Virus record (IMG/VR): IMGVR_UViG_2534681675_000021
DNA from: a virus
Lineage: Duplodnaviria; Heunggongvirae; Uroviricota; Caudoviricetes
Reading direction: 5' to 3' (one strand)
Length of the DNA: 34,161 nucleotides
Below, one piece after another: positions 2,881 through 32,799 of the stretch (position 1 is its first letter; every line of letters begins with the position of its first letter). Position numbers and translations under genes: made by a program. The notes beneath the pieces are model-generated. The model was not told the origin of the DNA and ran no database searches. It worked only from the letters and a program-made list of their open reading frames with translations.

Positions 2881-2961
2881 GTAGATTGTTTAGTGCTTGG
2901 ATGTGGGCACTAAAAGGCATTATAAGACATTAAACGCAATTCATGAGGGCTAGAGGACGAC

Positions 2962-3237
2962 ATGAGCAAGCAAGTAACACTCATGACTGATGCGATTCCT
3001 TATCAGGAGTTCGCAAAACTAATAGGAAAATCGACAGGAGCGGTTCGTCGGATGATCGATAAAGGAAAGCTGCCTGTAATTGATATGACCGATCCACAAT
3101 CAGCTTCAGGTCGTGCAGGTGAATATTGGGTATACCTTCCGGCATGGAATAACGGACTAAAACTGGCTTATGAAAGCCGCCCTAAAGAGATTCGTGACGG
3201 CTGGTTGATGTGGTTAGGTCTCGGTGAACCACGTTAA
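2962..3237 (+). CDS. cox: Cox (excisionase and repressor of Pc), 91 aa
   Basis: 91 aa, first gene of the early operator-distal transcript; length and position as P2 Cox. Confidence 0.9.
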   Translation: MSKQVTLMTDAIPYQEFAKLIGKSTGAVRRMIDKGKLPVIDMTDPQSASGRAGEYWVYLPAWNNGLKLAYESRPKEIRDGWLMWLGLGEPR

Positions 3238-3418
3238 GGAGAACCGTATGAATGAGCCTCGTTGTATTGCTCAGTTACTGCGTAACGAAAGCCCCAGGGC
3301 GATTGACTTCACCATCACCCACGGTAAGGGGCGTAAGGGAATCATTATCCGCACCAAAAAACAGAGTCCGTTAAAAAAGGCTCTGACCTTTCTGAAAAGC
3401 CGGAGGGTATGGAAATGA
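3224..3418 (+). CDS. Small early protein (P2 orf78 position), hypothetical
   Basis: ORF between cox and B in the early operon, overlapping the cox stop; start uncertain. Confidence 0.4.
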   Translation: MNHVKENRMNEPRCIAQLLRNESPRAIDFTITHGKGRKGIIIRTKKQSPLKKALTFLKSRRVWK

Positions 3419-3915
3419 CAGTGATGACGCTCAATCTCGTTGAAAAACAGCCAGCAACTATGCGCCGGATAATTGGTAAGCATCTGGCCGTCCCTCGCTG
3501 GCAGGAGACATGCGATTATTATAATCAGATGATGGAACGCGAACGGCTAACGGTTTGCTTTCATGCGCAGTTAAAACAGCGTCACGCAACGATGCGTTTT
3601 GAAGAAATGAACGACGTCGAACGTGAACGACTGGTTTGTGCAATTGATGAATTGCGTGGGGCATTCTCAAAACGCCGTCAGGTTGGCGCAAGTGAGTATG
3701 CATATATTAGTTTTTTAACAGTCAGTCAGCGCCGTACTTTATTTATGCACGCACGACTGACAGAAAAAGAATTTAACCAGCCATACTGGCGAATTAATGA
3801 GGAATCATGTTACTGGCGTGATGCTTTATTCCGTGCATTACGTGAATTATTCAGTCTGTTTGAGTATGCACCGACAATTCTGACATCGGTAAAACCAGAG
3901 CAATATCTGCATTAA
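3415..3915 (+). CDS. B: Replication protein B (helicase-loader-like), 166 aa
   Basis: 166 aa from MTVMTLNLVEKQ; position and length as P2 B. Confidence 0.85.
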   Translation: MTVMTLNLVEKQPATMRRIIGKHLAVPRWQETCDYYNQMMERERLTVCFHAQLKQRHATMRFEEMNDVERERLVCAIDELRGAFSKRRQVGASEYAYISFLTVSQRRTLFMHARLTEKEFNQPYWRINEESCYWRDALFRALRELFSLFEYAPTILTSVKPEQYLH

Positions 3916-3978
3916 GTAATTAACCAGAGTTTTTAACGCACTTAATTGTGCGGGGCTTCTTTTTGCCTGGAGAAAGTC

Positions 3979-4203
3979 ATGCATACAGTTTCTGAAAATG
4001 AGTGCGGTAAATACGCATTACTGCTGCAACAGGCCAGAACCGAAGCACAGGCCGATGCAGCGACGCGCTTTTCTTCTCATCTTGACGCCATGATTCGCCA
4101 CATCACAAAGGCGGAGTTATCCCGCGTGGAGATAGTCGAGCTGCTCAGTCAGGAGTCGGAAAAATTTCACAATATCGGATTGTCTCGCGGGGAGGTGCTT
4201 TGA
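3979..4203 (+). CDS. Early-operon small protein (orf80-like), hypothetical
   Basis: Shine-Dalgarno GGAGAAAG before ATG 3979; compact early-operon gene. Confidence 0.5.
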
Positions 4204-4505
4204 TGTCCTGTTCTCGTTCGGTTGTATTACTGAATAACGCCTTAAAAATCGCCGTTATGAAAAATGGCGATTTATCTCTTATTCAACTTGGTCTTGATAA
4301 AGAAAAACGCGAAATAACTGAGTCTGTTATCGCGATTTATCAGAGCGAATTAAATCTCCTGTCTGATGTGGTCAATTTACTTGTTAAACGCGCTGTATTT
4401 CACAAGCAAATCTCCTCCGTGGATGAACTGACGAAATTAACGACAGAAATTGCCAGCTATTGCGCTGATGAATTTAAAAAACTTAACGACAAAAGGAGCT
4501 GGTAA
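4200..4505 (+). CDS. Early-operon small protein (orf81-like), hypothetical
   Basis: GGAGG Shine-Dalgarno; overlaps the upstream stop, consistent with translational coupling. Confidence 0.5.
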
Positions 4506-4729
4506 TGCCGGACAACGTAGATTTTATTCAGGAACAACAGGCTGAATTACTGGAGCGTCAGATTAACGCGGCAAGGGTAAAACATTGCGGTGCTTCTGCG
4601 CTGGTTTGCGAAGAGTGTTACGCGCCAATACCTGCTGCCCGTCGTGCGGCTTATCCGTCAGCCACGCGTTGTGTTTCCTGTCAGTCAGTCTTTGAAGCAA
4701 AAAACAAACATTACCGGAGAACGGCATGA
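4505..4729 (+). CDS. TraR/DksA-family C4 zinc-finger protein (orf82-like)
   Basis: C-x2-C ... C-x2-C motif (CEECYAPIPAARRAAYPSATRCVSCQ); AGGAG Shine-Dalgarno; ATG overlaps the upstream stop. Confidence 0.6.
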   Translation: MPDNVDFIQEQQAELLERQINAARVKHCGASALVCEECYAPIPAARRAAYPSATRCVSCQSVFEAKNKHYRRTA

Positions 4730-5001
4730 GTATTCGTATTGAAATTGGCGAACGTTATGTCGTTACCAGTGACAGCTTTCAGTTTATTCTCCACGAGAAA
4801 AAGAGAGCGGAAAGCGGTAAAAACGCCGGTCAGGAATGGCTGGCAGTGGTTGGTTATTACCCGAAATTAAGCCAGCTCGTTTCCGGCATGATGCATCACG
4901 ATATTCTGACCGGAAGCGCAAAATCTTTTGCTGATTTAAACGCGCAGGTTGAGCAACTCAGCAAGCGTTGTTCAGAGGCTTTTGGCTCACATGGCCGTTA
5001 A
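4726..5001 (+). CDS. Early-operon small protein (orf83-like), hypothetical
   Basis: ORF immediately upstream of A, overlapping neighbours. Confidence 0.5.
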   Translation: MSIRIEIGERYVVTSDSFQFILHEKKRAESGKNAGQEWLAVVGYYPKLSQLVSGMMHHDILTGSAKSFADLNAQVEQLSKRCSEAFGSHGR

Positions 5002-7276
5002 AGCCTCCGGGCGTTTTGTCCCTCCGTCAGCATTTGCCGCAGGCACCGGTAAGGCGTTTACCGGTGCTTATGCATGGAACGCGCCACGCGAGGCTGTCGG
5101 GCGCGAAAGACCACTTACACGTGACGAGATGCGTCAGGTGCAAGGTGTTTTATCCACGATTAACCGCCTGCCTTACTTTTTGCGCTCGCTGTTTACTTCA
5201 CGCTATGACTACATCCGGCGCAATAAAAGCCCGGTGCACGGGTTTTATTTCCTCACATCCACTTTTCAGCGTCGTTTATGGCCGCGCATTGAGCGTGTGA
5301 ATCAGCGCCATGAAATGAACACCGACGCGTCGTTGCTGTTTCTGGCAGAGCGTGACCACTATGCGCGCCTGCCGGGAATGAATGACAAGGAGCTGAAAAA
5401 GTTTGCCGCCCGTATCTCATCGCAGCTTTTCATGATGTATGAGGAACTCAGCGATGCCTGGGTGGATGCACATGGCGAAAAAGAATCGCTGTTTACGGAT
5501 GAGGCGCAGGCTCACCTCTATGGTCATGTTGCTGGCGCTGCACGTGCTTTCAATATTTCCCCGCTTTACTGGAAAAAATACCGTAAAGGACAGATGACCA
5601 CGAGGCAGGCATATTCTGCCATTGCCCGTCTGTTTAACGATGAGTGGTGGACTCATCAGCTCAAAGGCCAGCGTATGCGCTGGCATGAGGCGTTACTGAT
5701 TGCTGTCGGGGAGGTCAATAAAGACCGTTCTCCTTATGCCAGTAAACATGCCATTCGTGATGTGCGTGCACGCCGCCAGGCAAATCTGGAATTTCTTAAA
5801 TCGTGTGATCTCGAAAACAGGGAAACCGGCGAGCGCATCGACCTTATCAGTAAGGTGATGGGCAGTATTTCTAATCCTGAAATTCGCCGGATGGAGCTGA
5901 TGAACACCATTGCCGGTATTGAGCGTTACGCCGCAGCAGAGGGTGATGTGGGGATGTTTATCACGCTGACCGCGCCGTCAAAGTATCACCCGACACGTCA
6001 GGTTGGAAAAGGCGAAAGTAAAACCGTCCAGCTAAATCACGGCTGGAACGATGAGGCATTTAATCCAAAGGATGCGCAGCGTTATCTCTGCCGTATCTGG
6101 AGCCTGATGCGCACGGCATTCAAGGATAATGATTTACAGGTCTACGGTTTGCGTGTCGTCGAGCCACACCACGACGGAACGCCGCACTGGCATATGATGC
6201 TTTTTTGTAATTCGCGCCAGCGTAACCAGATTATCGAAATCATGCGTCGCTATGCGCTCAAAGAGGATGGCGACGAAAGAGGAGCAGCGCGAAACCGTTT
6301 TCAGGCAAAACACCTTAATCGGGGCGGTGCTGCGGGGTATATCGCGAAATACATCTCAAAAAACATCGACGGCTATGCACTGGATGGTCAGCTCGATAAC
6401 GATACCGGCAGACCTCTGAAAGATACTGCCGCGGCTGTTACTGCATGGGCGTCAACGTGGCGCATCCCGCAATTTAAAACGGTTGGTCTGCCGACAATGG
6501 GGGCTTACCGTGAACTACGCAAATTGCCTCGCGGCGTCAGCATTGCTGATGAGTTTGACGAACGCGTCGAGGCTGCACGCGCTGCCGCAGACAGTGGCGA
6601 TTTTGCGTTGTATATCAGTGCGCAGGGTGGGGCAAATGTTCCGCGCGATTGCCAGACTGTCAGAGTCGCCCGTAGCCCGTCGGATGAAGTTAACGAGTAC
6701 GAGGAAGAAGTCGAGAGAGTGGTCGGCATTTACGCGCCGCATCTCGGCGCGCGTCATATTCATATCACCAGAACGACGGACTGGCGCATTGTGCCGAAAG
6801 TTCCGGTCGTGGAGCCTTTGACTTTAAAAAGCGGCATCGCCGCGCCTCGGAGTCCTGTCAATAACTGTGGAAAGCTCACCGGTGGTGATACTTCGTTACC
6901 GGCTCCCACACCTTCTGAGCACGCCGCAGCAGTGCTAAATCTGGTTGATGACGGTGTTATCGAATGGAATGACCCGGAGGTCGTGAGGACGCTCAGGGGG
7001 GCATTAAAACACGGCCTGAAAACACCAAATCGTCAGCAAAGAAACGGAAGCCCGTTAAAACCACATGAAATAGCACCGTCGGCCAGACTGACCCGGTCGG
7101 AACGATTGCAAATTACCCGTATCCGCGTTGACCTCGCTCAGAACGGTATCAGGCCGCAACGATGGGAGCTTGAGGCGCTGGCGCGTGGCGCGATCGTAAA
7201 TTCTGACGGGAAAAAATTCACGTATCCGGTCGCTGATGAGTGGCCGGGATTCTCAACAGTAATGGAGTGGACATAA
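4991..7276 (+). CDS. A: Replication initiation protein A (rolling-circle nickase), 761 aa
   Basis: 761 aa from ATG 4991 (the track start at 4949 is a TTG). Length and position as P2 A. Confidence 0.85.
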   Translation: MAVKASGRFVPPSAFAAGTGKAFTGAYAWNAPREAVGRERPLTRDEMRQVQGVLSTINRLPYFLRSLFTSRYDYIRRNKSPVHGFYFLTSTFQRRLWPRIERVNQRHEMNTDASLLFLAERDHYARLPGMNDKELKKFAARISSQLFMMYEELSDAWVDAHGEKESLFTDEAQAHLYGHVAGAARAFNISPLYWKKYRKGQMTTRQAYSAIARLFNDEWWTHQLKGQRMRWHEALLIAVGEVNKDRSPYASKHAIRDVRARRQANLEFLKSCDLENRETGERIDLISKVMGSISNPEIRRMELMNTIAGIERYAAAEGDVGMFITLTAPSKYHPTRQVGKGESKTVQLNHGWNDEAFNPKDAQRYLCRIWSLMRTAFKDNDLQVYGLRVVEPHHDGTPHWHMMLFCNSRQRNQIIEIMRRYALKEDGDERGAARNRFQAKHLNRGGAAGYIAKYISKNIDGYALDGQLDNDTGRPLKDTAAAVTAWASTWRIPQFKTVGLPTMGAYRELRKLPRGVSIADEFDERVEAARAAADSGDFALYISAQGGANVPRDCQTVRVARSPSDEVNEYEEEVERVVGIYAPHLGARHIHITRTTDWRIVPKVPVVEPLTLKSGIAAPRSPVNNCGKLTGGDTSLPAPTPSEHAAAVLNLVDDGVIEWNDPEVVRTLRGALKHGLKTPNRQQRNGSPLKPHEIAPSARLTRSERLQITRIRVDLAQNGIRPQRWELEALARGAIVNSDGKKFTYPVADEWPGFSTVMEWT

Positions 7277-7728
7277 TGGCAAAAATTCACGAGTTAAAGC
7301 TGCACGCAAAATATTTCGACCTTGTGCTGGAAGGAAAGAAACGCGCAGAGTTTCGGAAAAATGACCGTAATTATGAGCGCGGGGACACGTTGATTTTGCA
7401 TGAATGGGTGCAGGGTGTGTATACGGGGCGAAAGGTTGAAGCCCGGATAACAGATGTTACTGACCTGTCAGACTGGCTGGAAGATTATGTCTTGCTAAGT
7501 ATTGAGCGGCTTAATACAGGCGCATATGAGATTGTGAACTGGAAAGAACTTAGTGAGCGTGGTCTGGTATTCAGAATTAATCATGAAATTATGCATCAGC
7601 TCGGCCTTGCTGTTATGTATGAATCAGAGACGGGGATGTCTGGCGGGGCAATGGTAGCCACGGATGGAGCATGGAACTATTCAGATGAACAGATGGAGCG
7701 TGCAAAGCAAAACGGGTGGCTTGGATAA
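7276..7728 (+). CDS. ASCH/DUF3850-like protein (P2 orf91 position), 150 aa
   Basis: ATG overlaps the A stop (TAATG). N-terminal KIHELKLHAKYFDLVLEGKKRAEFRKNDRNYERGDTLILHEW resembles the DUF3850/ASCH signature. Confidence 0.6.
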   Translation: MAKIHELKLHAKYFDLVLEGKKRAEFRKNDRNYERGDTLILHEWVQGVYTGRKVEARITDVTDLSDWLEDYVLLSIERLNTGAYEIVNWKELSERGLVFRINHEIMHQLGLAVMYESETGMSGGAMVATDGAWNYSDEQMERAKQNGWLG

Positions 7729-7934
7729 TGCACAGAATACCAGGCGAGATACCGCACCATAAAACTAAAAATATCAAGCTGATGGCTATTGTTCAGCGTT
7801 TACAGCGGATTATGGTCAACGAAAATCTGACGCCCGATGAGCTGGTCGGGTGTGCCGAAATAGTACGGGATAATTACGGGCGGCTTAACTATATCGGTCA
7901 GTCCAGAGTTGCGCCACCACCACGCAGACGATAG
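7716..7934 (+). CDS. Small hypothetical protein, about 70 aa
   Basis: ORF overlapping the end of the previous gene; no recognisable motif; could be non-coding. Confidence 0.3.
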   Translation: MAWIMHRIPGEIPHHKTKNIKLMAIVQRLQRIMVNENLTPDELVGCAEIVRDNYGRLNYIGQSRVAPPPRRR

Positions 7935-8157
7935 AGAACGCCGCCAGTCGTGAAACTTGTTTTCAGGGCTGGCGGGGTTGAACAACGAGCGAAGCGAGAC
8001 GTTAGTTGACAGACATATTTTTACTACGTTGGTGCTGGTTTTTGACGGTTGAAAGGAGTTAGGTTGGAGAGCTAACAACTTACAAATATTCAAAAGTAAG
8101 CATCCTGTTGCTAACATGAGGTTGATTTTTTATGTGGATGATGCAAAAAGGATAGCT

Positions 8158-8889
8158 ATGGATACTATAATCGCTTTTCTATCACTCGCTTTTTTCGTTG
8201 CTTTCTTCATCGGGCTAATCAAGCCATCACTGGTGCGAATGCCAAACCGCAAACGTGCAAGTGCGGTTTATCTCGGAGGAGGTTTTGTATTGAGCATAAT
8301 TGGTTCAATACTCTATCCAACAGAAAAAAGCCAGCCAGTTGCTAAAACTGAAACATCAACCGTTGCAGAACACAAAGTCCAAAAAACATTCGAATATGGT
8401 GAAAAAACACTCAAGGAATATCGGAACGAGTCAAAGAAAACACGACACGATATTGTGAATAGTTACATTGATTTTAAGGAAGTTCCAGCCACCGCGTCAG
8501 ATGCGTTTTATGCCTGCATGAGTGAGTATACATTTACCAAAGATGATGAGTTGAAACTCGGTGATGTTCTTGGGTGGTGCTTTAATGATTATGAAAATGA
8601 CCCGAGTTCACTAAACAATAAAATCAATCTTGATACATTTCAGAGTAATTTTAGTGGTTGGGATGGTTCTTATCGTCCATTGGAAAAACTAATTAAAGAT
8701 AATATGAACGATGATTCATCTTATAAACATGTGTCAACGGTATATCATCTGGTTTTGAATAAAGACCCGCATGCCATTGTGAAAACCACGTTTCGCGGAA
8801 CTAATGCTTATGGCGGAGTGGTGAAACAGACGATTGCTGCGCGTGTCAATGTAGAAACAGGTGAGGTTGTATCAATTATAAGTGAGTGA
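8158..8889 (+). CDS. Cargo protein 1: membrane-anchored protein of unknown function (two predicted N-terminal TM helices, about 180-aa soluble C-terminal domain)
   Basis: AGGA Shine-Dalgarno 7 nt before ATG 8158 (an alternative ATG at 8116 has no SD). Strongly AT-rich relative to the phage backbone. Hydrophobic segments IIAFLSLAFFVAFFIGLI and AVYLGGGFVLSIIGSILY. Occupies the P2 tin/old position. Confidence 0.6.
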   Translation: MDTIIAFLSLAFFVAFFIGLIKPSLVRMPNRKRASAVYLGGGFVLSIIGSILYPTEKSQPVAKTETSTVAEHKVQKTFEYGEKTLKEYRNESKKTRHDIVNSYIDFKEVPATASDAFYACMSEYTFTKDDELKLGDVLGWCFNDYENDPSSLNNKINLDTFQSNFSGWDGSYRPLEKLIKDNMNDDSSYKHVSTVYHLVLNKDPHAIVKTTFRGTNAYGGVVKQTIAARVNVETGEVVSIISE

Positions 8890-8910
8890 ACTGTGCCAGA
8901 ATGATAAAGA

Positions 8911-8930
8911 TGCCAGCATTTATGCTGGCA
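8911..8930. other. Intergenic hairpin (TGCCAGCA-TTTA-TGCTGGCA) between the two cargo genes
   Basis: Perfect 8-bp inverted repeat with a 4-nt loop, seen directly; function unknown. Confidence 0.3.
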
Positions 8931-8987
8931 ATCATAAAAATAGTGACTAGCAAAAATTGGTGTCTGGTTTTAATGTGAGATTAGAAA

Positions 8988-9686
8988 ATGAAGAGATGTA
9001 AATATATTTTAAGAGGTTTGTTGCTGAAGTTTAAAAGTATAAGTTCTATGCATTTGTTATTTGTTTTAATAACGGCTTGTCTATTCTTTTTTATAGGGTG
9101 TTACGTGGGTTATAGTGGTATTGGTTTGAATGGTGACACTAAATACCAATTAATTACAATACCTTTTTTGACCATGTTGGGTACTTGGGTTTCTGGGGTG
9201 GGAGCATTTTCTGCTGTTGCGACATCATTGTTGTTGGCACACCGTTCGCTAAAGGAAAATTCAGAAGAAATTGCTATTCGATATAGCATGGTGTTAATAC
9301 CATCAATGTACTTACCTAGCACTACAGATACAGCAATATCAATAACCATAACAAACAAAAGAAAAGTAAGGAGTAATATTCAATCGGTTGTTTTGCAATT
9401 TTCTAATAATAAAGCAATGAATATATGGGTAAACCCCGGGACGCTTATCTCTGGCAAGTTACCGCATGTTTTAGAAGACTATGGTGATATATTGATGCTT
9501 ATAATTCCAGAGAGCATTACCGCATCAGTAACTGATGAGGGGTTCGTAAAAGAATGTCAGGGGAATACTCTTGGAGAAGGTAGCGTCGTAGTTCACACAA
9601 CGACAAAAACATTTGTAAAAAAATTAACATTACCTCAAGTTAAGCCATTTAATGATAAATTTAAGTCTGTATTGACGAAGCCGTAA
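8988..9686 (+). CDS. Cargo protein 2: membrane-anchored protein of unknown function (two predicted TM helices, about 150-aa soluble C-terminal domain)
   Basis: AT-rich; hydrophobic segments LLFVLITACLFFFIGCYVGY and ITIPFLTMLGTWVSGVGAFSAVATSLLLA; same strand and spacing as cargo gene 1; no recognisable catalytic motif. Confidence 0.6.
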   Translation: MKRCKYILRGLLLKFKSISSMHLLFVLITACLFFFIGCYVGYSGIGLNGDTKYQLITIPFLTMLGTWVSGVGAFSAVATSLLLAHRSLKENSEEIAIRYSMVLIPSMYLPSTTDTAISITITNKRKVRSNIQSVVLQFSNNKAMNIWVNPGTLISGKLPHVLEDYGDILMLIIPESITASVTDEGFVKECQGNTLGEGSVVVHTTTKTFVKKLTLPQVKPFNDKFKSVLTKP

Positions 9687-9811
9687 GAGGTGCGTTGCGT
9701 TGCATTTTTTTGCATCTTCAAGGATTAATTTCTGCATCTTTATTTTGCCAGTACTGATGTGCTTTTAATGGACTCATGCAACTGCATTAAAATCGACCCA
9801 TGAAGCGGGCG

Positions 9812-9830
9812 GGCGAGGCGGGGAAAGCAC
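9812..9830. other. cos site candidate (19-nt cohesive-end sequence GGCGAGGCGGGGAAAGCAC)
   Basis: Matches the P2/186 cohesive-end sequence as I recall it; lies in the GC-rich non-coding region next to portal gene Q, as in P2. Confidence 0.55.
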
Positions 9831-9972
9831 TGCGCGCTGGCGGTGGTGCTGATTTTATTTTTTCAGCGTCTCAGCGCGTCGTAATGGCGTTTAGATTGTG
9901 CGCCGGGGCGCTGGTGTGTCTGCGGGCTGTTTTGTGCGGTGGTGAGTGTGTGAGGGCGTGATGACGGGGTGT

Positions 9973-9994
9973 AAAAAAGCCGCCCGCAGGCGGC
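9973..9994 (-). terminator. Rho-independent terminator downstream of Q (minus strand)
   Basis: On the minus strand, GCCGCC-TGCG-GGCGGC followed by TTTTTT, immediately after the Q stop. Confidence 0.6.
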
Positions 9995-9999
9995 GATGT

Positions 10000-11034
10000 T
10001 CAGCCGTTGTCAGTGTCCAGTGAGTAGTTTTTAAATCGGATGACCTCCTGACCGAGCCAGCCGTTTATCTCGCGGATCCTGTCCTGTAACGGGATAAGCT
10101 CATTGCGGACAAAGACCTTTGCCACTTTTTCAATATCACCCAGCGATCCGACGTTCTCCGGCTTGCCACCCATCAACTGAAAGGGGATGCGGTGCGCGTC
10201 CAGCAGGTCAGCGGCGCTGGCTTTTTTGATATTAAAAAAATCGTCCTTCGTTGCCACTTCACTGAGCGGGATAATTTTAATGCCGTCGGCTTTTCCCTGC
10301 GGGGCATAGAGAAACAGATTTTTAAAGTTGTTGCGGCCTTTCGACTTGACCATGTTTTCGCGAAGCATTTCGATATCGTTGCGATCCTGCACGGCATCAG
10401 TGACGTACATGATGTATCCGGCATGTGCGCCGTTTTCGTAATACTTGCGGCGGAACAGCGTGGCTGACTCATTCAGCCAGGCAGAGTTAAGGGCGCTGAG
10501 ATATTCCGGCAGGCCGTACAGCTCCTGATTAATATCCGGCTCCAGCAGATGAAACACGGAGCCGGGCGCGAAAGGTGTCGGCTCGTTGAAGGACGGCACC
10601 CACCAGTAAACATCCTCCTCCACGCCACGGCGGGTATATTTTGCCGGTGAGGTTTCCAGTCTGATGACCTTACCGGTGGTGCTGTAACGCTTTTCCAGAA
10701 ACGCATTACCGAACACCAGAAAATCCAGCACAAAGCGGCTGAAATCCTGCTGGGAAAGCCACGGATGCGGGATAAATGTCGAGGCCAGAATATTGCGTTT
10801 GACGTAAATCGGGGAGCTGTGATGCACGGCAGCACGCAGGCTTTTTGCCAGACCGGTAAAGCTGACCGGTGGCTCATACCATCTGCCGTTACTGATGCAC
10901 TCGACGTAATCCAGAATGTCACGCCGGTCGAGTACCGGTACCGGCTCACCAAAGGTGAATGCCTCCATTTTCGGGGCGCTGGCGGTCATTGTTTTTGCCG
11001 CAGGTTGCGGTGTTTTCCCTTTTTTCTTGCTCAT
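10000..11034 (-). CDS. Q: Portal protein Q, 344 aa
   Basis: 344 aa; start overlaps the P stop (ATGA); position and length as P2 Q. Confidence 0.95.
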   Translation of the reverse strand: MSKKKGKTPQPAAKTMTASAPKMEAFTFGEPVPVLDRRDILDYVECISNGRWYEPPVSFTGLAKSLRAAVHHSSPIYVKRNILASTFIPHPWLSQQDFSRFVLDFLVFGNAFLEKRYSTTGKVIRLETSPAKYTRRGVEEDVYWWVPSFNEPTPFAPGSVFHLLEPDINQELYGLPEYLSALNSAWLNESATLFRRKYYENGAHAGYIMYVTDAVQDRNDIEMLRENMVKSKGRNNFKNLFLYAPQGKADGIKIIPLSEVATKDDFFNIKKASAADLLDAHRIPFQLMGGKPENVGSLGDIEKVAKVFVRNELIPLQDRIREINGWLGQEVIRFKNYSLDTDNG

Positions 11035-12806
11035 CAGTAAAACTCCAGAATGGTGGATGTCAGCGGGGTGCTGATACCGGCGGTGAGTGGCTCATTTAAC
11101 AGGGCATGCATGGTCGCCCAGGCGAGGTCGGCGTGGCTGGCTTCCTCGCTGCGGCTGGCCTCATAGGTGGCGCTGCGTCCGCTGCTGGTCATGGTCTTGC
11201 GGATAGCCATAAACGAGCTGGTGATGTCGGTGGCGCTGACGTCATATTCCAGACAGCCACGGCGGATAACGTCTTTTGCCTTGAGCACCATTGCGGTTTT
11301 CATTTCCGGCGTGTAGCGGATATCGCGCGCGGCGGGATAGAACGAGCGCACGAGCTGGAACACGCCGACACCGAGGCCGGTGGCATCAATTCCGATGTAT
11401 TCGACGTTGTATTTTTCGGTGAGTTTGCGGATGGATTCAGCCTGGGTGGCAAAGTCCATGCCTTTCCACTGGTGACGCTCAAGTATTCTGAATTTGCCAC
11501 CGGCCACCACCGGCGGTGCCAGCACCACGCATCCGGCGCTGTCGCCACGGTGTGACGGGTCGTAACCAATCCATACCGGGCGGGAGCCGAACGGATTGGC
11601 GGCAAAGGGTGCATAGTCTTCCCATTCTTCCAGCGTGTCGACCATGCAGCGTTGCAGCTCCTCGAACGGGAACACCGATGCCTTGTCGTCAACAAATTCA
11701 CACATGAACAGGTTTTTAAAATCGTCGGCGCTGTTTTCACGTTTGAGCTGCTCAATGTCGAACAGTGTGCAGCCACCTTTCAGGGCGTCCTCAATGGTGA
11801 CAATCTGCCGCCACTGGCCGTCCGCACAGAGAAGACCTCCAGCAAGGGCGTTATGACTGACGTCGATTTCCACGCGTTCGGCGGCGCTGGCGCGTCCCCG
11901 GTTGAACAGTTCACCCGACCAGAACGGGTAGGCGTCATGCGCCAGCGTGGACGGGGTGGAGAAATAGGTCGAGCGCAGGTGACTCTGTGAGGCCATACCT
12001 GATGCCACCTTACGCAGTACCTGAAAATTCGGGATCCAGAAAATCTCATCGACGTACAGGTCGCCGTTATGACTCTGCGCGGTGTTGGAGTTGGTGCCGA
12101 GAAAAATCAGTTTTGCGCCGTTATTGCCCAGGACAATCGGGTCACCGGTCAGGTCAACGTCAACCAGCCGGGCAAAGGCGATGATGTATTCACGGAACAC
12201 ATACGCCTGCGTTTTACTGGCCGACAGAAAAATCTGGTTATGACCGGTTTTCAGGGCGCGCAGCAGCGCCTCGCGGGAAAAATAAAACGTCGCGCCAATC
12301 TGGCGGGATTTCAGGATATCGCGGATGCGGTGCTCAAGCCCGGCGCGATACCAGTGCAACTGATATTCGAAAGACTGCTCAAAGAAAATCTGCTCCAGCT
12401 TTTCGATGGCCTCGTCACTGAAAAAATTCTTTTTCGGTTTGCGACGCCCGCCTTTGTTGCGGTTAGCGACGTTCGGATTAAGGTCTGCCTCGTTGCCGGT
12501 CTGACTGTAACGGTTGATCCGTGCCAGTCGTTCAATCTGGCGTCCGAGCAGGTCAATTTCCTTGAAGTCACCGCCGGTTTTCTGTGGTTTGATGATGAGC
12601 TGGGTCAGCCGCGCTTCCAGACTCATTTCGACACGGCTGATGGGGGCAACGCTGTCCCAGCCGTCGCGCTGTTTCCAGCTCTGCACCGTCGGGCGTTTCA
12701 TCTGCAACATGGCGGCAATCTGCGGCACGGAAAATCCCTGCCAGTACAGCAGCGCCGCCTGACGACGCGGGTCGTGTAAAAGAGTGGTGTCTGTGGTGAT
12801 GGTCAT
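11034..12806 (-). CDS. P: Terminase large subunit P, 590 aa
   Basis: 590 aa from the ATG with GAGG Shine-Dalgarno (MTITTDTT...); divergent from O; length as P2 P. Confidence 0.95.
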   Translation of the reverse strand: MTITTDTTLLHDPRRQAALLYWQGFSVPQIAAMLQMKRPTVQSWKQRDGWDSVAPISRVEMSLEARLTQLIIKPQKTGGDFKEIDLLGRQIERLARINRYSQTGNEADLNPNVANRNKGGRRKPKKNFFSDEAIEKLEQIFFEQSFEYQLHWYRAGLEHRIRDILKSRQIGATFYFSREALLRALKTGHNQIFLSASKTQAYVFREYIIAFARLVDVDLTGDPIVLGNNGAKLIFLGTNSNTAQSHNGDLYVDEIFWIPNFQVLRKVASGMASQSHLRSTYFSTPSTLAHDAYPFWSGELFNRGRASAAERVEIDVSHNALAGGLLCADGQWRQIVTIEDALKGGCTLFDIEQLKRENSADDFKNLFMCEFVDDKASVFPFEELQRCMVDTLEEWEDYAPFAANPFGSRPVWIGYDPSHRGDSAGCVVLAPPVVAGGKFRILERHQWKGMDFATQAESIRKLTEKYNVEYIGIDATGLGVGVFQLVRSFYPAARDIRYTPEMKTAMVLKAKDVIRRGCLEYDVSATDITSSFMAIRKTMTSSGRSATYEASRSEEASHADLAWATMHALLNEPLTAGISTPLTSTILEFY

Positions 12807-12979
12807 GAATACCTCGCCGTGATGAATACACGGCAAGGCTACTGAGTCGCGCCCCGCGATTCGCTAAGGTGCTGTTGTGTCAGTGATAAGCCATCCGGGA
12901 CTGATGGCGGAGGATGCGCATCGTCGGGAAACTGATGCCGACATGTGACTCCTCTAATCACTATTCAGGACTCCTGACA

Positions 12980-18305: not shown

Positions 18306-18735
18306 TGCCGTCACGGTGCTGAAAACCAGCCCCGAGATGCTGCGGATATTCGTGGATAACGGGAGTATTGCCTCCACACTGGCGACGTCTCTGTCATTCG
18401 AAAAGCGTTACACGCTCAATGTGATTGTGACCGACTTTACCGGTGATTTTGACCTGCTCATTGTGCCGGTGCTGGCGTGGCTGCGGGAGAATCAGCCCGA
18501 CATCATGACCACCGACGCAGGCCAGAAAAAGGGCTTCACGTTTTATGCAGACATCAACAATGACAGCAGCTTTGATATCAGCATCAGCCTGATGCTGACC
18601 GAGCGCACGCTGGTCAGTGAGGTGGACGGCGCGCTGCATGTGAAGAATATCCCGGAACCTCCGCCGCCGGAGCCGGTCAACCGTCCGATGGAGCTGTATA
18701 TCAATGGCGAACTGGTGAGCAAGTGGGATGAATGA
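18268..18735 (+). CDS. R: Tail completion protein R, 155 aa
   Basis: 155 aa; position and length as P2 R. Confidence 0.85.
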   Translation: MLKPDSLRRALTDAVTVLKTSPEMLRIFVDNGSIASTLATSLSFEKRYTLNVIVTDFTGDFDLLIVPVLAWLRENQPDIMTTDAGQKKGFTFYADINNDSSFDISISLMLTERTLVSEVDGALHVKNIPEPPPPEPVNRPMELYINGELVSKWDE

Positions 18736-19186
18736 GTTTAAGCGTTTTGAAGACCGGCTGGCTGGACTGATTGAATCGCTGTCACCGTCAGGGCGTCGGC
18801 GACTGGCGGTAGATATTGCGAAGAAGCTGCGCCAGCGCCAGCAGCAGCGAATTAAATTACAAAAAGCCCCGGATGGTACGCCGTATGTACCGAGAAAAAA
18901 CCAACCAGTACGAAATAAGAAAGGCCGGATAAAGCGGGAAATGTTTGTGAAATTACGCACTAACCGGTTTATGAAAGCAACAGGTAGCGAGAGTGCGGCG
19001 GTGGTGGCGTTTGCCAGCGGAGTACAACGAATTGCGCGAGTACATCAATTAGGGCTTAGGGATAAGCCGGGGCGTAATAGTGCTGTGGTGGAATATCCTG
19101 TTCGTGAGTTATTTGGTTTTGACAAGGAATCTATACAATTGATAGAAAGGGAGTTATTAGTGATTCTATCGAAAGATGTTATATGA
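18728..19186 (+). CDS. S: Tail completion protein S
   Basis: About 150 aa; position as P2 S. Confidence 0.85.
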   Translation: MNEFKRFEDRLAGLIESLSPSGRRRLAVDIAKKLRQRQQQRIKLQKAPDGTPYVPRKNQPVRNKKGRIKREMFVKLRTNRFMKATGSESAAVVAFASGVQRIARVHQLGLRDKPGRNSAVVEYPVRELFGFDKESIQLIERELLVILSKDVI

Positions 19187-19938
19187 GACGGGTGTTTGTG
19201 GATAAAAAGTTTTCCATTTTGAGAAAAAGAGTAAAGCATTCTCAAAAGAAAGTTATGGATTGTATTATTGCTGACCATAATGCTGATATATGTGTGTTAT
19301 GCGGGAGTTCTGACGATATTACTCGTGAGCACATTATTCCTCAGTGGGCCTTTGAGTCAAATGCTGAAAAATCTTTAATTAATAAAAAGAATAATCAGTC
19401 AACTCATTACATTAAAGCCACTGTACCAGCATGCAGAGTGTGCAATTCTGATTTGCTGGGAGTGTTTGAGTATAACCTGAAGAAATTTCTTACGGAAAAG
19501 AGAGGGGAGGAGTTAACAGATTATGAGTATGATTGCATCATATGGTGGTTGCAATACATGGGTTTTAAGTTGCAATTAATGGATTTGCGGAACCGCTTTC
19601 TCAGGTATAAAGGTGGTGATTATATCCCGTTTCTTGCAAACTTCCCGGTTGCAATGTTTTGGGGGAATGTCGATACGACGCCGGGGGATGTCTTCAGGAT
19701 TATACGAAAATCGCGACGCAATCTGATGTCGAAATGGAAGGATAAAAAACATAATTCTTTGATGGTTTTTGAAACATCAAACAAGAGTTTTCATTTCTTT
19801 CATAAGGTTGATGAATTTATTTTTATTGAAATTCCTCAGGTTAAGAAGGCGTTTTTCTTCTTTTTTAATAAAGAATTTGACAGCCATGATTTAGCTCATG
19901 AGGAGTGTATGAAGATTATAGAGAAGTGCTACAACTAA
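19183..19938 (+). CDS. Cargo protein with N-terminal HNH-nuclease-like motif plus about 160-aa C-terminal domain of unknown function
   Basis: ATG overlaps the S stop (ATGA). Motif CVLCGSSDDITREHIIPQW...ACRVCNS (C-x2-C, HxxP, C-x2-C-N) is HNH-like. AT-rich. Inserted between S and V where P2 carries the moron orf30. Confidence 0.6.
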   Translation: MRRVFVDKKFSILRKRVKHSQKKVMDCIIADHNADICVLCGSSDDITREHIIPQWAFESNAEKSLINKKNNQSTHYIKATVPACRVCNSDLLGVFEYNLKKFLTEKRGEELTDYEYDCIIWWLQYMGFKLQLMDLRNRFLRYKGGDYIPFLANFPVAMFWGNVDTTPGDVFRIIRKSRRNLMSKWKDKKHNSLMVFETSNKSFHFFHKVDEFIFIEIPQVKKAFFFFFNKEFDSHDLAHEECMKIIEKCYN

Positions 19939-20015
19939 TATTTGTTATGTTGTGTCACAGCTGACAGAACCCTCCATGATTGCTGCTGGTATCGTCCAGC
20001 GGCATCCTTCCCGTT

Positions 20016-20651
20016 ATGAACACTCTCGCAAATATTCAGGAACTCGCGCGCGCACTGCGCAATATGATTCGCACCGGCGTTATCGTCGAAACCGACCTTA
20101 ACGCCGGTCGCTGCCGTGTGCAGACCGGCGGCATGTGCACCGACTGGCTTCAGTGGTTGACCCATCGTGCCGGGCGTTCGCGTACATGGTGGGCACCTTC
20201 CGTGGGGGAACAGGTGCTGATTCTGGCCGTGGGCGGTGAACTTGACACGGCGTTTGTTCTGCCGGGGATTTATTCCGGTGATAACCCCGCGCCGTCTGCG
20301 TCGGCGGATGCCCTGCATATCCGTTTCCCTGACGGGGCGGTGATTGAGTATGAACCCGAAACCAGTGCACTCATGGTAAGCGGAATTAAAACGGCCAGCG
20401 TGACGGCTTCTGATTCTGTTACTGCCACGGTGCCGGTGGTCATGGTGAAAGCATCAACCCGCATCACCATGGACGCACCGGAGGTGGTCTGCACCAACAG
20501 GCTGATTACCGACACGCTGGAAGTGCAGAAGGGCGGGACGATGCGCGGCAACATTGAACACACCGGCGGTGAACTCTCATCAAACGGTAAGGTACTGCAT
20601 ACCCATAAACACCCCGGCGACAGCGGCGGCACAACCGGGAGTCCTCTATGA
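20016..20651 (+). CDS. V: Baseplate spike/assembly protein V, 211 aa
   Basis: 211 aa from MNTLANIQEL; position and length as P2 V. Confidence 0.9.
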   Translation: MNTLANIQELARALRNMIRTGVIVETDLNAGRCRVQTGGMCTDWLQWLTHRAGRSRTWWAPSVGEQVLILAVGGELDTAFVLPGIYSGDNPAPSASADALHIRFPDGAVIEYEPETSALMVSGIKTASVTASDSVTATVPVVMVKASTRITMDAPEVVCTNRLITDTLEVQKGGTMRGNIEHTGGELSSNGKVLHTHKHPGDSGGTTGSPL

Positions 20652-32628: not shown

Positions 32629-32655
32629 AAAAAATAAGCCCGTGTAAGGGAGATT
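32629..32655. other. attR core (27 bp), identical to attL core
   Basis: Exact repeat of 1313-1339; lies within the 3' end of cyaR. Confidence 0.85.
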
Positions 32656-32715
32656 ACACAGGCTAAGGAGGTGGTTCCTGGTACAGCTAGCATTTTATGG
32701 GTTATGTTTTTCAGC
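32629..32715 (-). ncRNA. cyaR: CyaR (RyeE) small regulatory RNA, about 87 nt
   Basis: Minus-strand sequence GCTGAAAAACATAACCCATAAAATGCTAGCTGTACCAGGAACCACCTCCTTAGCCTGTGTAATCTCCCTTACACGGGCTTATTTTTT matches CyaR as I recall it, with terminator hairpin and U-run; located next to yegQ as in E. coli. Confidence 0.8.
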
Positions 32716-32799
32716 GAAACGGATGATAACCTTAATAAATGCAGCTGTATGTGATCGGTTTCTAAGAATTTTCCATCCGGGAAAAATAATCGAAATTAA

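Follow-up and report, generated by a model that had tools for sequence, protein, structure and literature searches.

The interval between gpA and gpQ beside cos is a known variable hotspot for cargo in P2-like phages, and the locus described here raises the question of whether two cargo genes in this interval form one membrane-associated system or two separate units, and what each of them does. The window, that is, the whole stretch of 34,161 nucleotides analyzed in this study (IMG/VR record IMGVR_UViG_2534681675_000021), is a P2-like (Peduovirus) prophage carrying a cargo island between the A/orf91-like block and cos/Q. A preliminary description made from the letters of the window had read the two genes of this island, gene 1 and gene 2, as a cassette encoding a candidate two-component abortive-infection or superinfection-exclusion system. 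Its account of the layout was reproduced. The two genes were co-oriented and AT-rich, with GC contents of 0.391 for gene 1, 0.349 for gene 2, and 0.371 for the island versus 0.534 for A and 0.554 for Q and P (35–39% for the genes against approximately 54% for the backbone). AlphaFold2 (AF2) models placed two N-terminal transmembrane (TM) helices in each product, and the hairpin between the genes was found to have arms of 9 nt that are 100% complementary.

The island at positions 7935–9773, located in the P2 gpA–cos/gpQ hotspot, would be best explained as two cargo modules ("morons") of one gene each, independent of one another, and genes 1 and 2 are very probably separable. This independence is suggested by four observations: each gene was found without the other, the partners were swapped among loci, gene 1 was followed by a hairpin of its own, and a gene 1 variant is listed as a single-gene system in the hotspot catalogue of Rousset 2022. 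Both open reading frames (ORFs) appear to be real genes, because many diverged protein homologues keep their length and architecture. The island was 99% identical in the isolated Escherichia phage 9W and Peduovirus P22H4, indicating that viable phages carry it.

Distribution of the two gene families

Homologues of gene 1 formed 159 clusters with 53–95% identity and were found in Escherichia, Klebsiella, Raoultella, Cronobacter, Citrobacter, Salmonella, and Enterobacter, and further in Serratia, Yersinia, Photorhabdus, Pectobacterium, Erwinia, and other genera. A plain search with gene 2 yielded 14 clusters only, near-identical and from E. coli; a profile search extended this family to 38 clusters, and an exhaustive HMMER search to 263 representative clusters. 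Among 5,426 complete E. coli genomes, gene 1 was present in 84 and the gene 2 of the window type in 6, all six adjoining gene 1. The pair was thus largely not conserved across related prophages, and each family was found without the other in multiple lineages. These results speak against the two-gene cassette or two-component system of the preliminary description.

In Kluyvera and Erwinia tracheiphila (L004 and L006), gene 1 was the sole cargo gene in the A–Q interval, and only about 500 bp of cos-proximal sequence separated it from Q. Across E. coli and other genera, it was accompanied by at least five unrelated neighbors, some of them on the opposite strand. The alternative partners in E. 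coli included a 260-amino-acid (aa) protein with one C-terminal TM helix in avian pathogenic E. coli (APEC) O78, a 224-aa soluble protein, and a 311-aa soluble protein (L029, 1456–2391; GN04171) matching the PADLOC single-gene candidate PDC-S64 with an E-value of 3.6e-17. By eye, the 311-aa protein carries an RNDIEH motif (Rx4H, HEPN-like) and C-terminal Cys clusters. Other E. coli gene 1 loci carried diverged relatives of gene 2 with 23–29% identity, and diverged alleles also followed gene 1 in Salmonella and in phage PHB48. In 16 species-representative gene 1 loci, the family hidden Markov model (HMM) detected no relative of gene 2 (0/16), and two of these loci adjoined an integrase outside the A–Q interval. 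A 185-aa ORF with one TM helix in Rahnella (L015) was considered as a gene 2 relative and rejected; its BLASTP E-value was 0.02, and the family HMM did not support the relationship. Among the best 80 gene 1 loci in IMG/VR, from which all IMG/VR figures for gene 1 were taken, gene 1 was alone in 10, accompanied by a gene 2 relative in 21, and accompanied by something else in the rest.

Conversely, members of the gene 2 family were found in P2 hotspots without gene 1 (L021–23, L027, L033, L036, and L141). The layouts were A, gene 2-like, 139 aa, and Q in Citrobacter; A, gene 2-like, and Q in Serratia; and A, 85 aa, gene 2-like, and Q in Enterobacter. In two P2-like metagenome loci lacking gene 1 (L033 and L034, at about 2894–4645), a SocA/Panacea protein and a 191-aa ORF, which are likely a toxin-antitoxin pair, were located directly upstream of the gene 2 relative. 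The family was also found outside P2-like phages: 22 of the 34 IMG/VR gene 2 family loci had no P2 A and Q homologues, many being on contigs of up to about 60 kb. In all five of the non-P2 contigs inspected (L125, L132, L135, L143, and L150; 53–60 kb with 58–62% GC), the gene 2 member was a single-gene insert of low GC content (0.46–0.53), and a portal-like ORF was nearby in four of the five. These inserts show that the gene 2 family is a moron common to different phage groups.

The distribution also bears on the proposal that genes 1 and 2 are the two obligate components of a single membrane system for abortive infection or exclusion. Such a system would agree with the adjacency of the two co-oriented, low-GC genes only 98 bp apart, with the presence of the window-type gene 2 beside gene 1 in 6 of 6 complete E. 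coli genomes, and with the diverged gene 2 alleles following gene 1 in the E. coli, Salmonella, and PHB48 loci. It is, however, difficult to reconcile with the occurrence of the families apart in several independent lineages and phage types and with the unrelated alternative neighbors of gene 1, some in opposite orientation. Moreover, a hairpin separates the two genes in the window, an orf72 homologue and a junction hairpin lie between them in Salmonella phage PHB48, and an ORF and a junction element lie between gene 1 and the gene 2 relative in L035. An obligate pair is therefore considered improbable.

Predicted architecture and candidate functions

The gene 1 ORF is open from position 8116, and the start at 8158 agreed with phrog_3403, with the NCBI Prokaryotic Genome Annotation Pipeline (PGAP), and with all homologues. 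The AF2 model (mean predicted local distance difference test [pLDDT] score, 80) contained TM helices at residues 2–21 and 31–52 and a domain composed of a helical bundle (85–183) packed on a four-stranded sheet (190–242); the scores of this domain were mostly 83–95 per 10-residue block, with one block at 72. The family alignment showed the order TM1, inter-TM loop (consensus KPSLVRMPNRKRSS), TM2, linker, and 165-aa domain. The inter-TM loop had three to five K/R residues and no acidic residue in 21 of the 21 aligned members, and the positive-inside rule thus predicts a cytoplasmic loop and a periplasmic domain (N-out/C-out). The mean pairwise identity was 25% in the linker and 62–68% in the 165-aa domain, which was conserved across genera. 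Cys120 and Cys141 were invariant in the family and located on neighboring helices in the model; the domain is probably stabilized by a disulfide bond. In an Oxalobacter homologue from a metagenome-assembled genome (L019, 5938–6522), the domain followed a lipoprotein signal peptide with a LAGC lipobox, and in a Xenorhabdus indica homologue (L018, 5755–6429), it followed one TM helix preceded by a Cys-rich N-terminus (CxxC...CxxC, resembling a zinc ribbon by eye), although the Xenorhabdus copy may be truncated. Judged from their sequences, both variants would agree with a periplasmic location of the domain.

These features suggest that gene 1 encodes an inner membrane protein whose two-TM hairpin would display the conserved domain in the periplasm. 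Because a periplasmic domain cannot sense the cytoplasm and this domain is conserved across genera, the protein would act at the envelope. Its conservation resembles that of a protein binding a conserved target. The favored candidate role of the gene 1 product is that of a superinfection-exclusion factor, which would interfere with genome entry or with a conserved host envelope component used by phages, in a manner similar to that of T4 Sp and Imm, P22 SieA, and HK97 gp15.

The AF2 model of the gene 2 product (pLDDT, 81) consisted of an N-terminal amphipathic tail, TM1 (20–44), a long TM2/stalk (52–90), a beta-sandwich (95–212), and a C-terminal helix. The N-terminal tail contained 6 K/R residues in the protein of the window and up to 10 in the closest clade, which predicts an N-in/C-in topology. 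Relatives with one TM helix had a short acidic N-terminal tail and three to six K/R residues just past the TM helix, predicting N-out/C-in. A cytoplasmic location of the sandwich is thus implied by both the two-TM and one-TM forms. This topology led to the rejection of a reading of gene 2 as type IV pilin or archaellin-like, which needs an N-in/C-out topology with a class III signal peptide and an external beta-sandwich. TM2 carried an invariant MLGxWVSG motif (M-L-G-x-W-V-S-G…A-V…S), and the mean pairwise identity was 64% in TM2 versus 35% in the sandwich. Gene 2 alleles were only 23–50% identical, while the neighboring gene 1 copies were 78–95% identical. Regarding the start of gene 2, the PGAP call (NZ_CP010176.1, RG51_RS25515) was a 193-aa protein with a GTG start at about 9105 that lacks the conserved TM1, and other records called proteins of 212 or 232 aa. 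By comparison with the family, the 193-aa call is probably too short; the starts that fit the family are 8988 and possibly 9048.

The gene 2 product would thus anchor a rapidly diverging, non-enzymatic, immunoglobulin (Ig)-like sandwich at the cytoplasmic side of the membrane, and the small-residue motif of TM2 would suit helix packing or oligomerization. It may act as a stand-alone membrane-tethered phage-sensing effector that causes abortive infection via membrane perturbation; alternatively, it may block the cytoplasmic exit of the injection path. We infer that the two genes are expressed from the prophage and active against phages by such mechanisms. The anti-phage role proposed in the preliminary description is plausible and a reasonable hypothesis; that both genes are anti-phage with roughly the mechanisms given here is a tentative reading, to which we assign slightly less than even likelihood.

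The main rival explanation is that the two envelope proteins contribute to lysogenic conversion or host fitness without acting against phages; gene 1, for example, could encode a membrane-tethered factor that resembles a periplasmic chaperone or protects against stress. Among solved structures, HdeA and HdeB, which are chaperones of the acid-stress response in the periplasm, were closest in fold to the helical subdomain of gene 1, the domain of gene 1 is more conserved than is typical of an arms-race protein, and the hotspot also holds non-defense cargo such as toxins and partition systems. On the other hand, the likeness to HdeA was at the fold level only, with 5% identity, and the two Cys residues are spaced by 21 residues in gene 1 versus about 48 in HdeA. 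Membership of gene 1 in the HdeA/HdeB chaperone family itself, which would call for a Pfam HdeA match and a small dimeric soluble protein, was rejected. The divergence of gene 2 alleles and the spread of this moron suggest phage–phage conflict, and the characterized cargo at the locus is mostly anti-phage. A role in lysogenic conversion or host fitness is accordingly regarded as unlikely, though a serious alternative.

Several observations weigh against the reading of the island as two independent anti-phage modules. Relatives of gene 2 were present in 40 of the 84 E. coli genomes with gene 1 (6 + 29 + 5) as well as in 21 of the 80 IMG/VR loci, so that co-occurrence reached about 26–48% of gene 1 loci versus a few percent expected. 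Three searched partner types, namely two diverged gene 2 types (29 and 5 genomes) and the unrelated one-TM protein (6 genomes), were never found without gene 1 in complete E. coli genomes. A functional link could account for this enrichment, as could the history of recombination. The topologies of both products were predicted only from charge rules, and a promoter scan of the island gave no convincing candidate, with 8 sites versus 6.0 ± 2.4 expected from shuffled sequences. Searches for homology to a characterized exclusion or defense protein gave nothing, or families of "unknown function", in PADLOC, Pfam, NCBIfam, and PHROGs. Finally, position alone is no proof of defense, because about a quarter of the P2 hotspot loci hold non-defense cargo, for example partition systems, and a cytolethal distending toxin is present in about 2%.

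The same co-occurrence could indicate a swap-slot arrangement in which gene 1 provides a conserved membrane platform facing the periplasm and the gene immediately downstream is an interchangeable partner dependent on it. Under this model, the gene 2 alleles with a hypervariable Ig-like domain, the one-TM protein, and the PDC-S64-like protein would serve as partners exchanged by cassette swapping beside cos, in a modular exclusion system with a single anchor and many sensors or effectors. The restriction of the three partner types to sites downstream of gene 1 (29, 5, and 6 genomes), the additional 6 of 6 for the window-type gene 2, and the co-variation of the gene 1 3′ end with the partner are in line with such dependence. 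Gene 1 was nevertheless commonly alone, the gene 2 family was present where gene 1 was missing, including in non-P2 phages, and one of the partners matched a stand-alone single-gene PADLOC candidate. Recombination anchored in gene 1 and the cos region explains the pattern equally well. We consider both the platform and the partner set assigned to it highly improbable. For two independent modules, the co-occurrence is mainly attributed to recombination in which gene 1 and the cos region serve as homologous anchors. The gene 1 3′ end changes together with the partner, and rapid swapping of cargo is documented for P2-like hotspots.

Locus boundaries, hairpins and neighboring genes

The features of the interval and its flanks are listed in Table 1. 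On the left side, the first 75 aa of the Orf91-like protein were 95% identical to P2 Orf91. On the right side, the cos match corresponded with 94% identity to the final 48 nt of P2, at its cosR end, and the sequence from about 9774 onward was conserved across P2-like loci independently of the cargo. The position of the orf72 homologue relative to gene 1 varied; in PHB48 (L020) and Enterobacter (L007), gene 1 precedes it.

Table 1. Positions of the cargo genes, associated elements, and flanking genes in the window
Feature	Position	Strand	Properties
Replication endonuclease A	4949–7276		
DUF3850/ASCH protein, P2 Orf91-like	7240–7728	+	Left conserved boundary; Pfam DUF3850 1.9e-18, ASCH 2.3e-11
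orf72 (72-aa ORF)	7716–7934	+	phrog_11386 at 4.1e-39, a PHROG without function
Junction element (about 70 bp)	7937–8005		Inverted repeat 7937–7955/7961–7979, 19-nt arms
Gene 1 (243 aa)	8158–8889	+	Two-TM hairpin and predicted periplasmic domain of about 165 aa
Hairpin	8911–8930		Arms 8911–8919/8922–8930
Gene 2 (232 aa)	8988–9686	+	K/R-rich N-terminal tail, two TM helices, Ig-like beta-sandwich, C-terminal helix (predicted)
cos-proximal non-coding region	9774–9999		Right conserved boundary; cos match 9783–9830
Portal Q	10000–11034	-	
Terminase P	11034–12836	-	

The hairpin between genes 1 and 2 starts 22 nt past the gene 1 stop codon and has no T-tract on the plus strand, and it would therefore be a weak terminator at best. 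A stable stem-loop within about 25 nt of the gene 1 stop codon was present in nearly every locus examined. The stem sequences differed, the ΔG values ranged from -10 to -29 kcal/mol, and few of the stem-loops had a T-tract. The commonest version was a 43-nt near-perfect hairpin (AACGCCGCCGGTGCTGAAAC…TTTCAGTGCTGGCGGGGTT), which in the window is located upstream of gene 1, directly after orf72 (7937–7979). It belongs to the junction element, which showed 83–90% identity across P2-like phages of several genera and had neither a T-tract nor an Rfam match; a scan of the whole island likewise yielded no Rfam match. The junction element was located directly 3′ of gene 1 in L004–L006, L009, L017, and L024–26 (about 6741–6809 or 4908–4976) and 3′ of the orf72 homologue in L007 (7864–7933) and L020 (3286–3354). 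The hairpins mark module boundaries, and the junction element may serve either to anchor recombination or as an element at RNA 3′ ends.

Two further features were observed elsewhere in the window. A second low-GC island (GC, 0.362) at 19183–19938 on the plus strand contained a 251-aa ORF amid tail genes, after the ORF at 18728–19186 and before that at 19980–20651. Its product had CxxC…H and CxxC motifs with a marginal Pfam HNH_5 match (E-value, 0.0099) below the cut-off and no PADLOC match, and the ORF is probably cargo of the second P2 hotspot, which lies in the tail gene region. A gene for the small RNA CyaR/RyeE (Rfam RF00112, 100.7 bits) was found close to the right end of the window, at 32632–32717 on the minus strand; it probably marks the host DNA flanking the prophage.

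Published cargo and known systems

To relate the two products to known families, they were compared with curated collections. Neither reached a curated cut-off in Pfam, and neither had a match at E ≤ 1 in NCBIfam or PADLOC (PADLOC-DB v2.0.0, 5027 models), in line with the earlier remark that no motif could be assigned. In PHROGs, gene 1 corresponded to phrog_3403 (1e-145) and gene 2 to phrog_23429 and phrog_16957, all of which are function-unknown families. Sequence profiles of the PDB yielded nothing significant for either family, and no enzyme fold was found for gene 1 or gene 2. Fifty-seven distant relatives of gene 2 were likewise without a family in Pfam and PADLOC at E ≤ 0.01, apart from one member with a single, probably spurious, Cas4 match. 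In scans of Pfam, NCBIfam, PADLOC, and PHROGs, these relatives and the alternative partners of gene 1 otherwise matched only PHROGs of unknown function, aside from the PDC-S64 match given above. Literature searches by accession or PHROG identifier returned no papers for either family. On these sequence comparisons, neither protein appears to belong to any described defense or exclusion family.

Earlier publications already describe the locus and the hotspot and record gene 1 as a frequent cargo gene, whereas no function has been published for either family. Table S5B of Rousset 2022 (Cell Host Microbe, PMC9122126) lists as entry #12 a single-protein "2 TM" system with no name, no Pfam assignment, and 210 occurrences, the 12th most frequent entry in the catalogue of the E. 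coli P2 hotspot. The protein of entry #12 differs little from the gene 1 product and falls in its 243-aa family: shared peptides matched, the N-terminal 56 residues were identical, and scattered differences followed. The alternative partner in APEC O78 is listed there separately as system #68 with 62 occurrences, and neither #12 nor #68 appears among the cloned or tested systems in the part of the supplement covered here (PMC9122126). The same part contained no relative of gene 2, which says nothing about the remainder of the tables.

The findings have consequences for annotation and for the choice of candidates. Pipelines based on guilt by association should not take genes 1 and 2 as a unit. 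A function for gene 1 would annotate hundreds of prophages across many Enterobacterales. The gene 2 family is tractable as a candidate minimal single-protein sensor/effector because of its invariant TM motif, its fast-evolving Ig-like domain, and its spread as a moron over unrelated phages.

Among known systems, tin and old of P2 occupy the same locus as genes 1 and 2, between gpA and gpQ beside cos, and most characterized cargo at this locus is anti-phage. Unlike genes 1 and 2, however, tin and old are on the opposite strand, and their sequences are unrelated. The earlier statement that no Old-like or Tin-like protein is present was borne out by BLASTP against P2 Tin and Old, in which all E-values exceeded 1. 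P2 Tin (253 aa) gave E ≥ 4.5 for gene 1 and no match for gene 2; P2 Old, an ABC ATPase with a TOPRIM nuclease, gave E ≥ 6, and neither an ATPase nor a Toprim domain (Pfam, E ≤ 1) nor a PADLOC match was detected.

The system of the P2-like phage AC1, consisting of 2TM, 1TM, and TIR proteins (Rousset 2022; DefenseFinder Rst_2TM_1TM_TIR), resides in the same hotspot and likewise includes membrane proteins with two and one TM helices. It requires the TIR protein as a third gene, whereas the window has only two cargo genes, in which Pfam found no TIR domain. By eye, the first AC1 protein begins with MGKQGKGKGKGNK in the cloned sequence, unlike the product of gene 1 or gene 2. AC1 was rejected as an identification of the pair because a TIR gene is missing.

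For gene 2, the nearest architectural counterparts are Cap15/S-2TMbeta-type effectors of cyclic oligonucleotide-based anti-phage signaling systems (CBASS) and other two-TM membrane effectors (Duncan-Lowey 2021, cited in PMC9122126). As in the predicted gene 2 product, two TM helices at the N-terminus precede a small cytoplasmic domain that is all-beta and non-enzymatic, an architecture that by analogy would suit ligand- or protein-triggered oligomerization in the membrane. They differ in that the Pfam S_2TMBeta family was absent for gene 2 (E ≤ 1) and for the 57 family members (E ≤ 0.01), and that no cyclase or other signal-generating gene was found near gene 2 among the ORFs of the window. 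Gene 2 was therefore not assigned to the CBASS effectors.

For gene 1, the relevant comparison is with superinfection-exclusion proteins acting at the envelope, a class defined by blocking the adsorption or genome entry of incoming phage, of which T4 Imm, T4 Sp, HK97 gp15, and lactococcal Sie2009 and TP-J34 Ltp are examples. P22 SieA is another such protein (PMC10883804). The proteins of this class are likened to the products described here in being small, phage- or prophage-encoded, non-enzymatic, anchored in or at the inner membrane, periplasm-facing, and able to act alone; they differ in that genes 1 and 2 had no sequence match to an annotated PHROG, Pfam, or PADLOC family. As judged from the alignment, the predicted periplasmic domain of gene 1 is compatible with this class. 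If either protein blocks phage, it would represent a new sequence family among envelope-level exclusion proteins or membrane effectors, and the two, if active, would be new sequence families within known kinds, namely single membrane proteins of the superinfection-exclusion (Sie) or abortive-infection (Abi) type.

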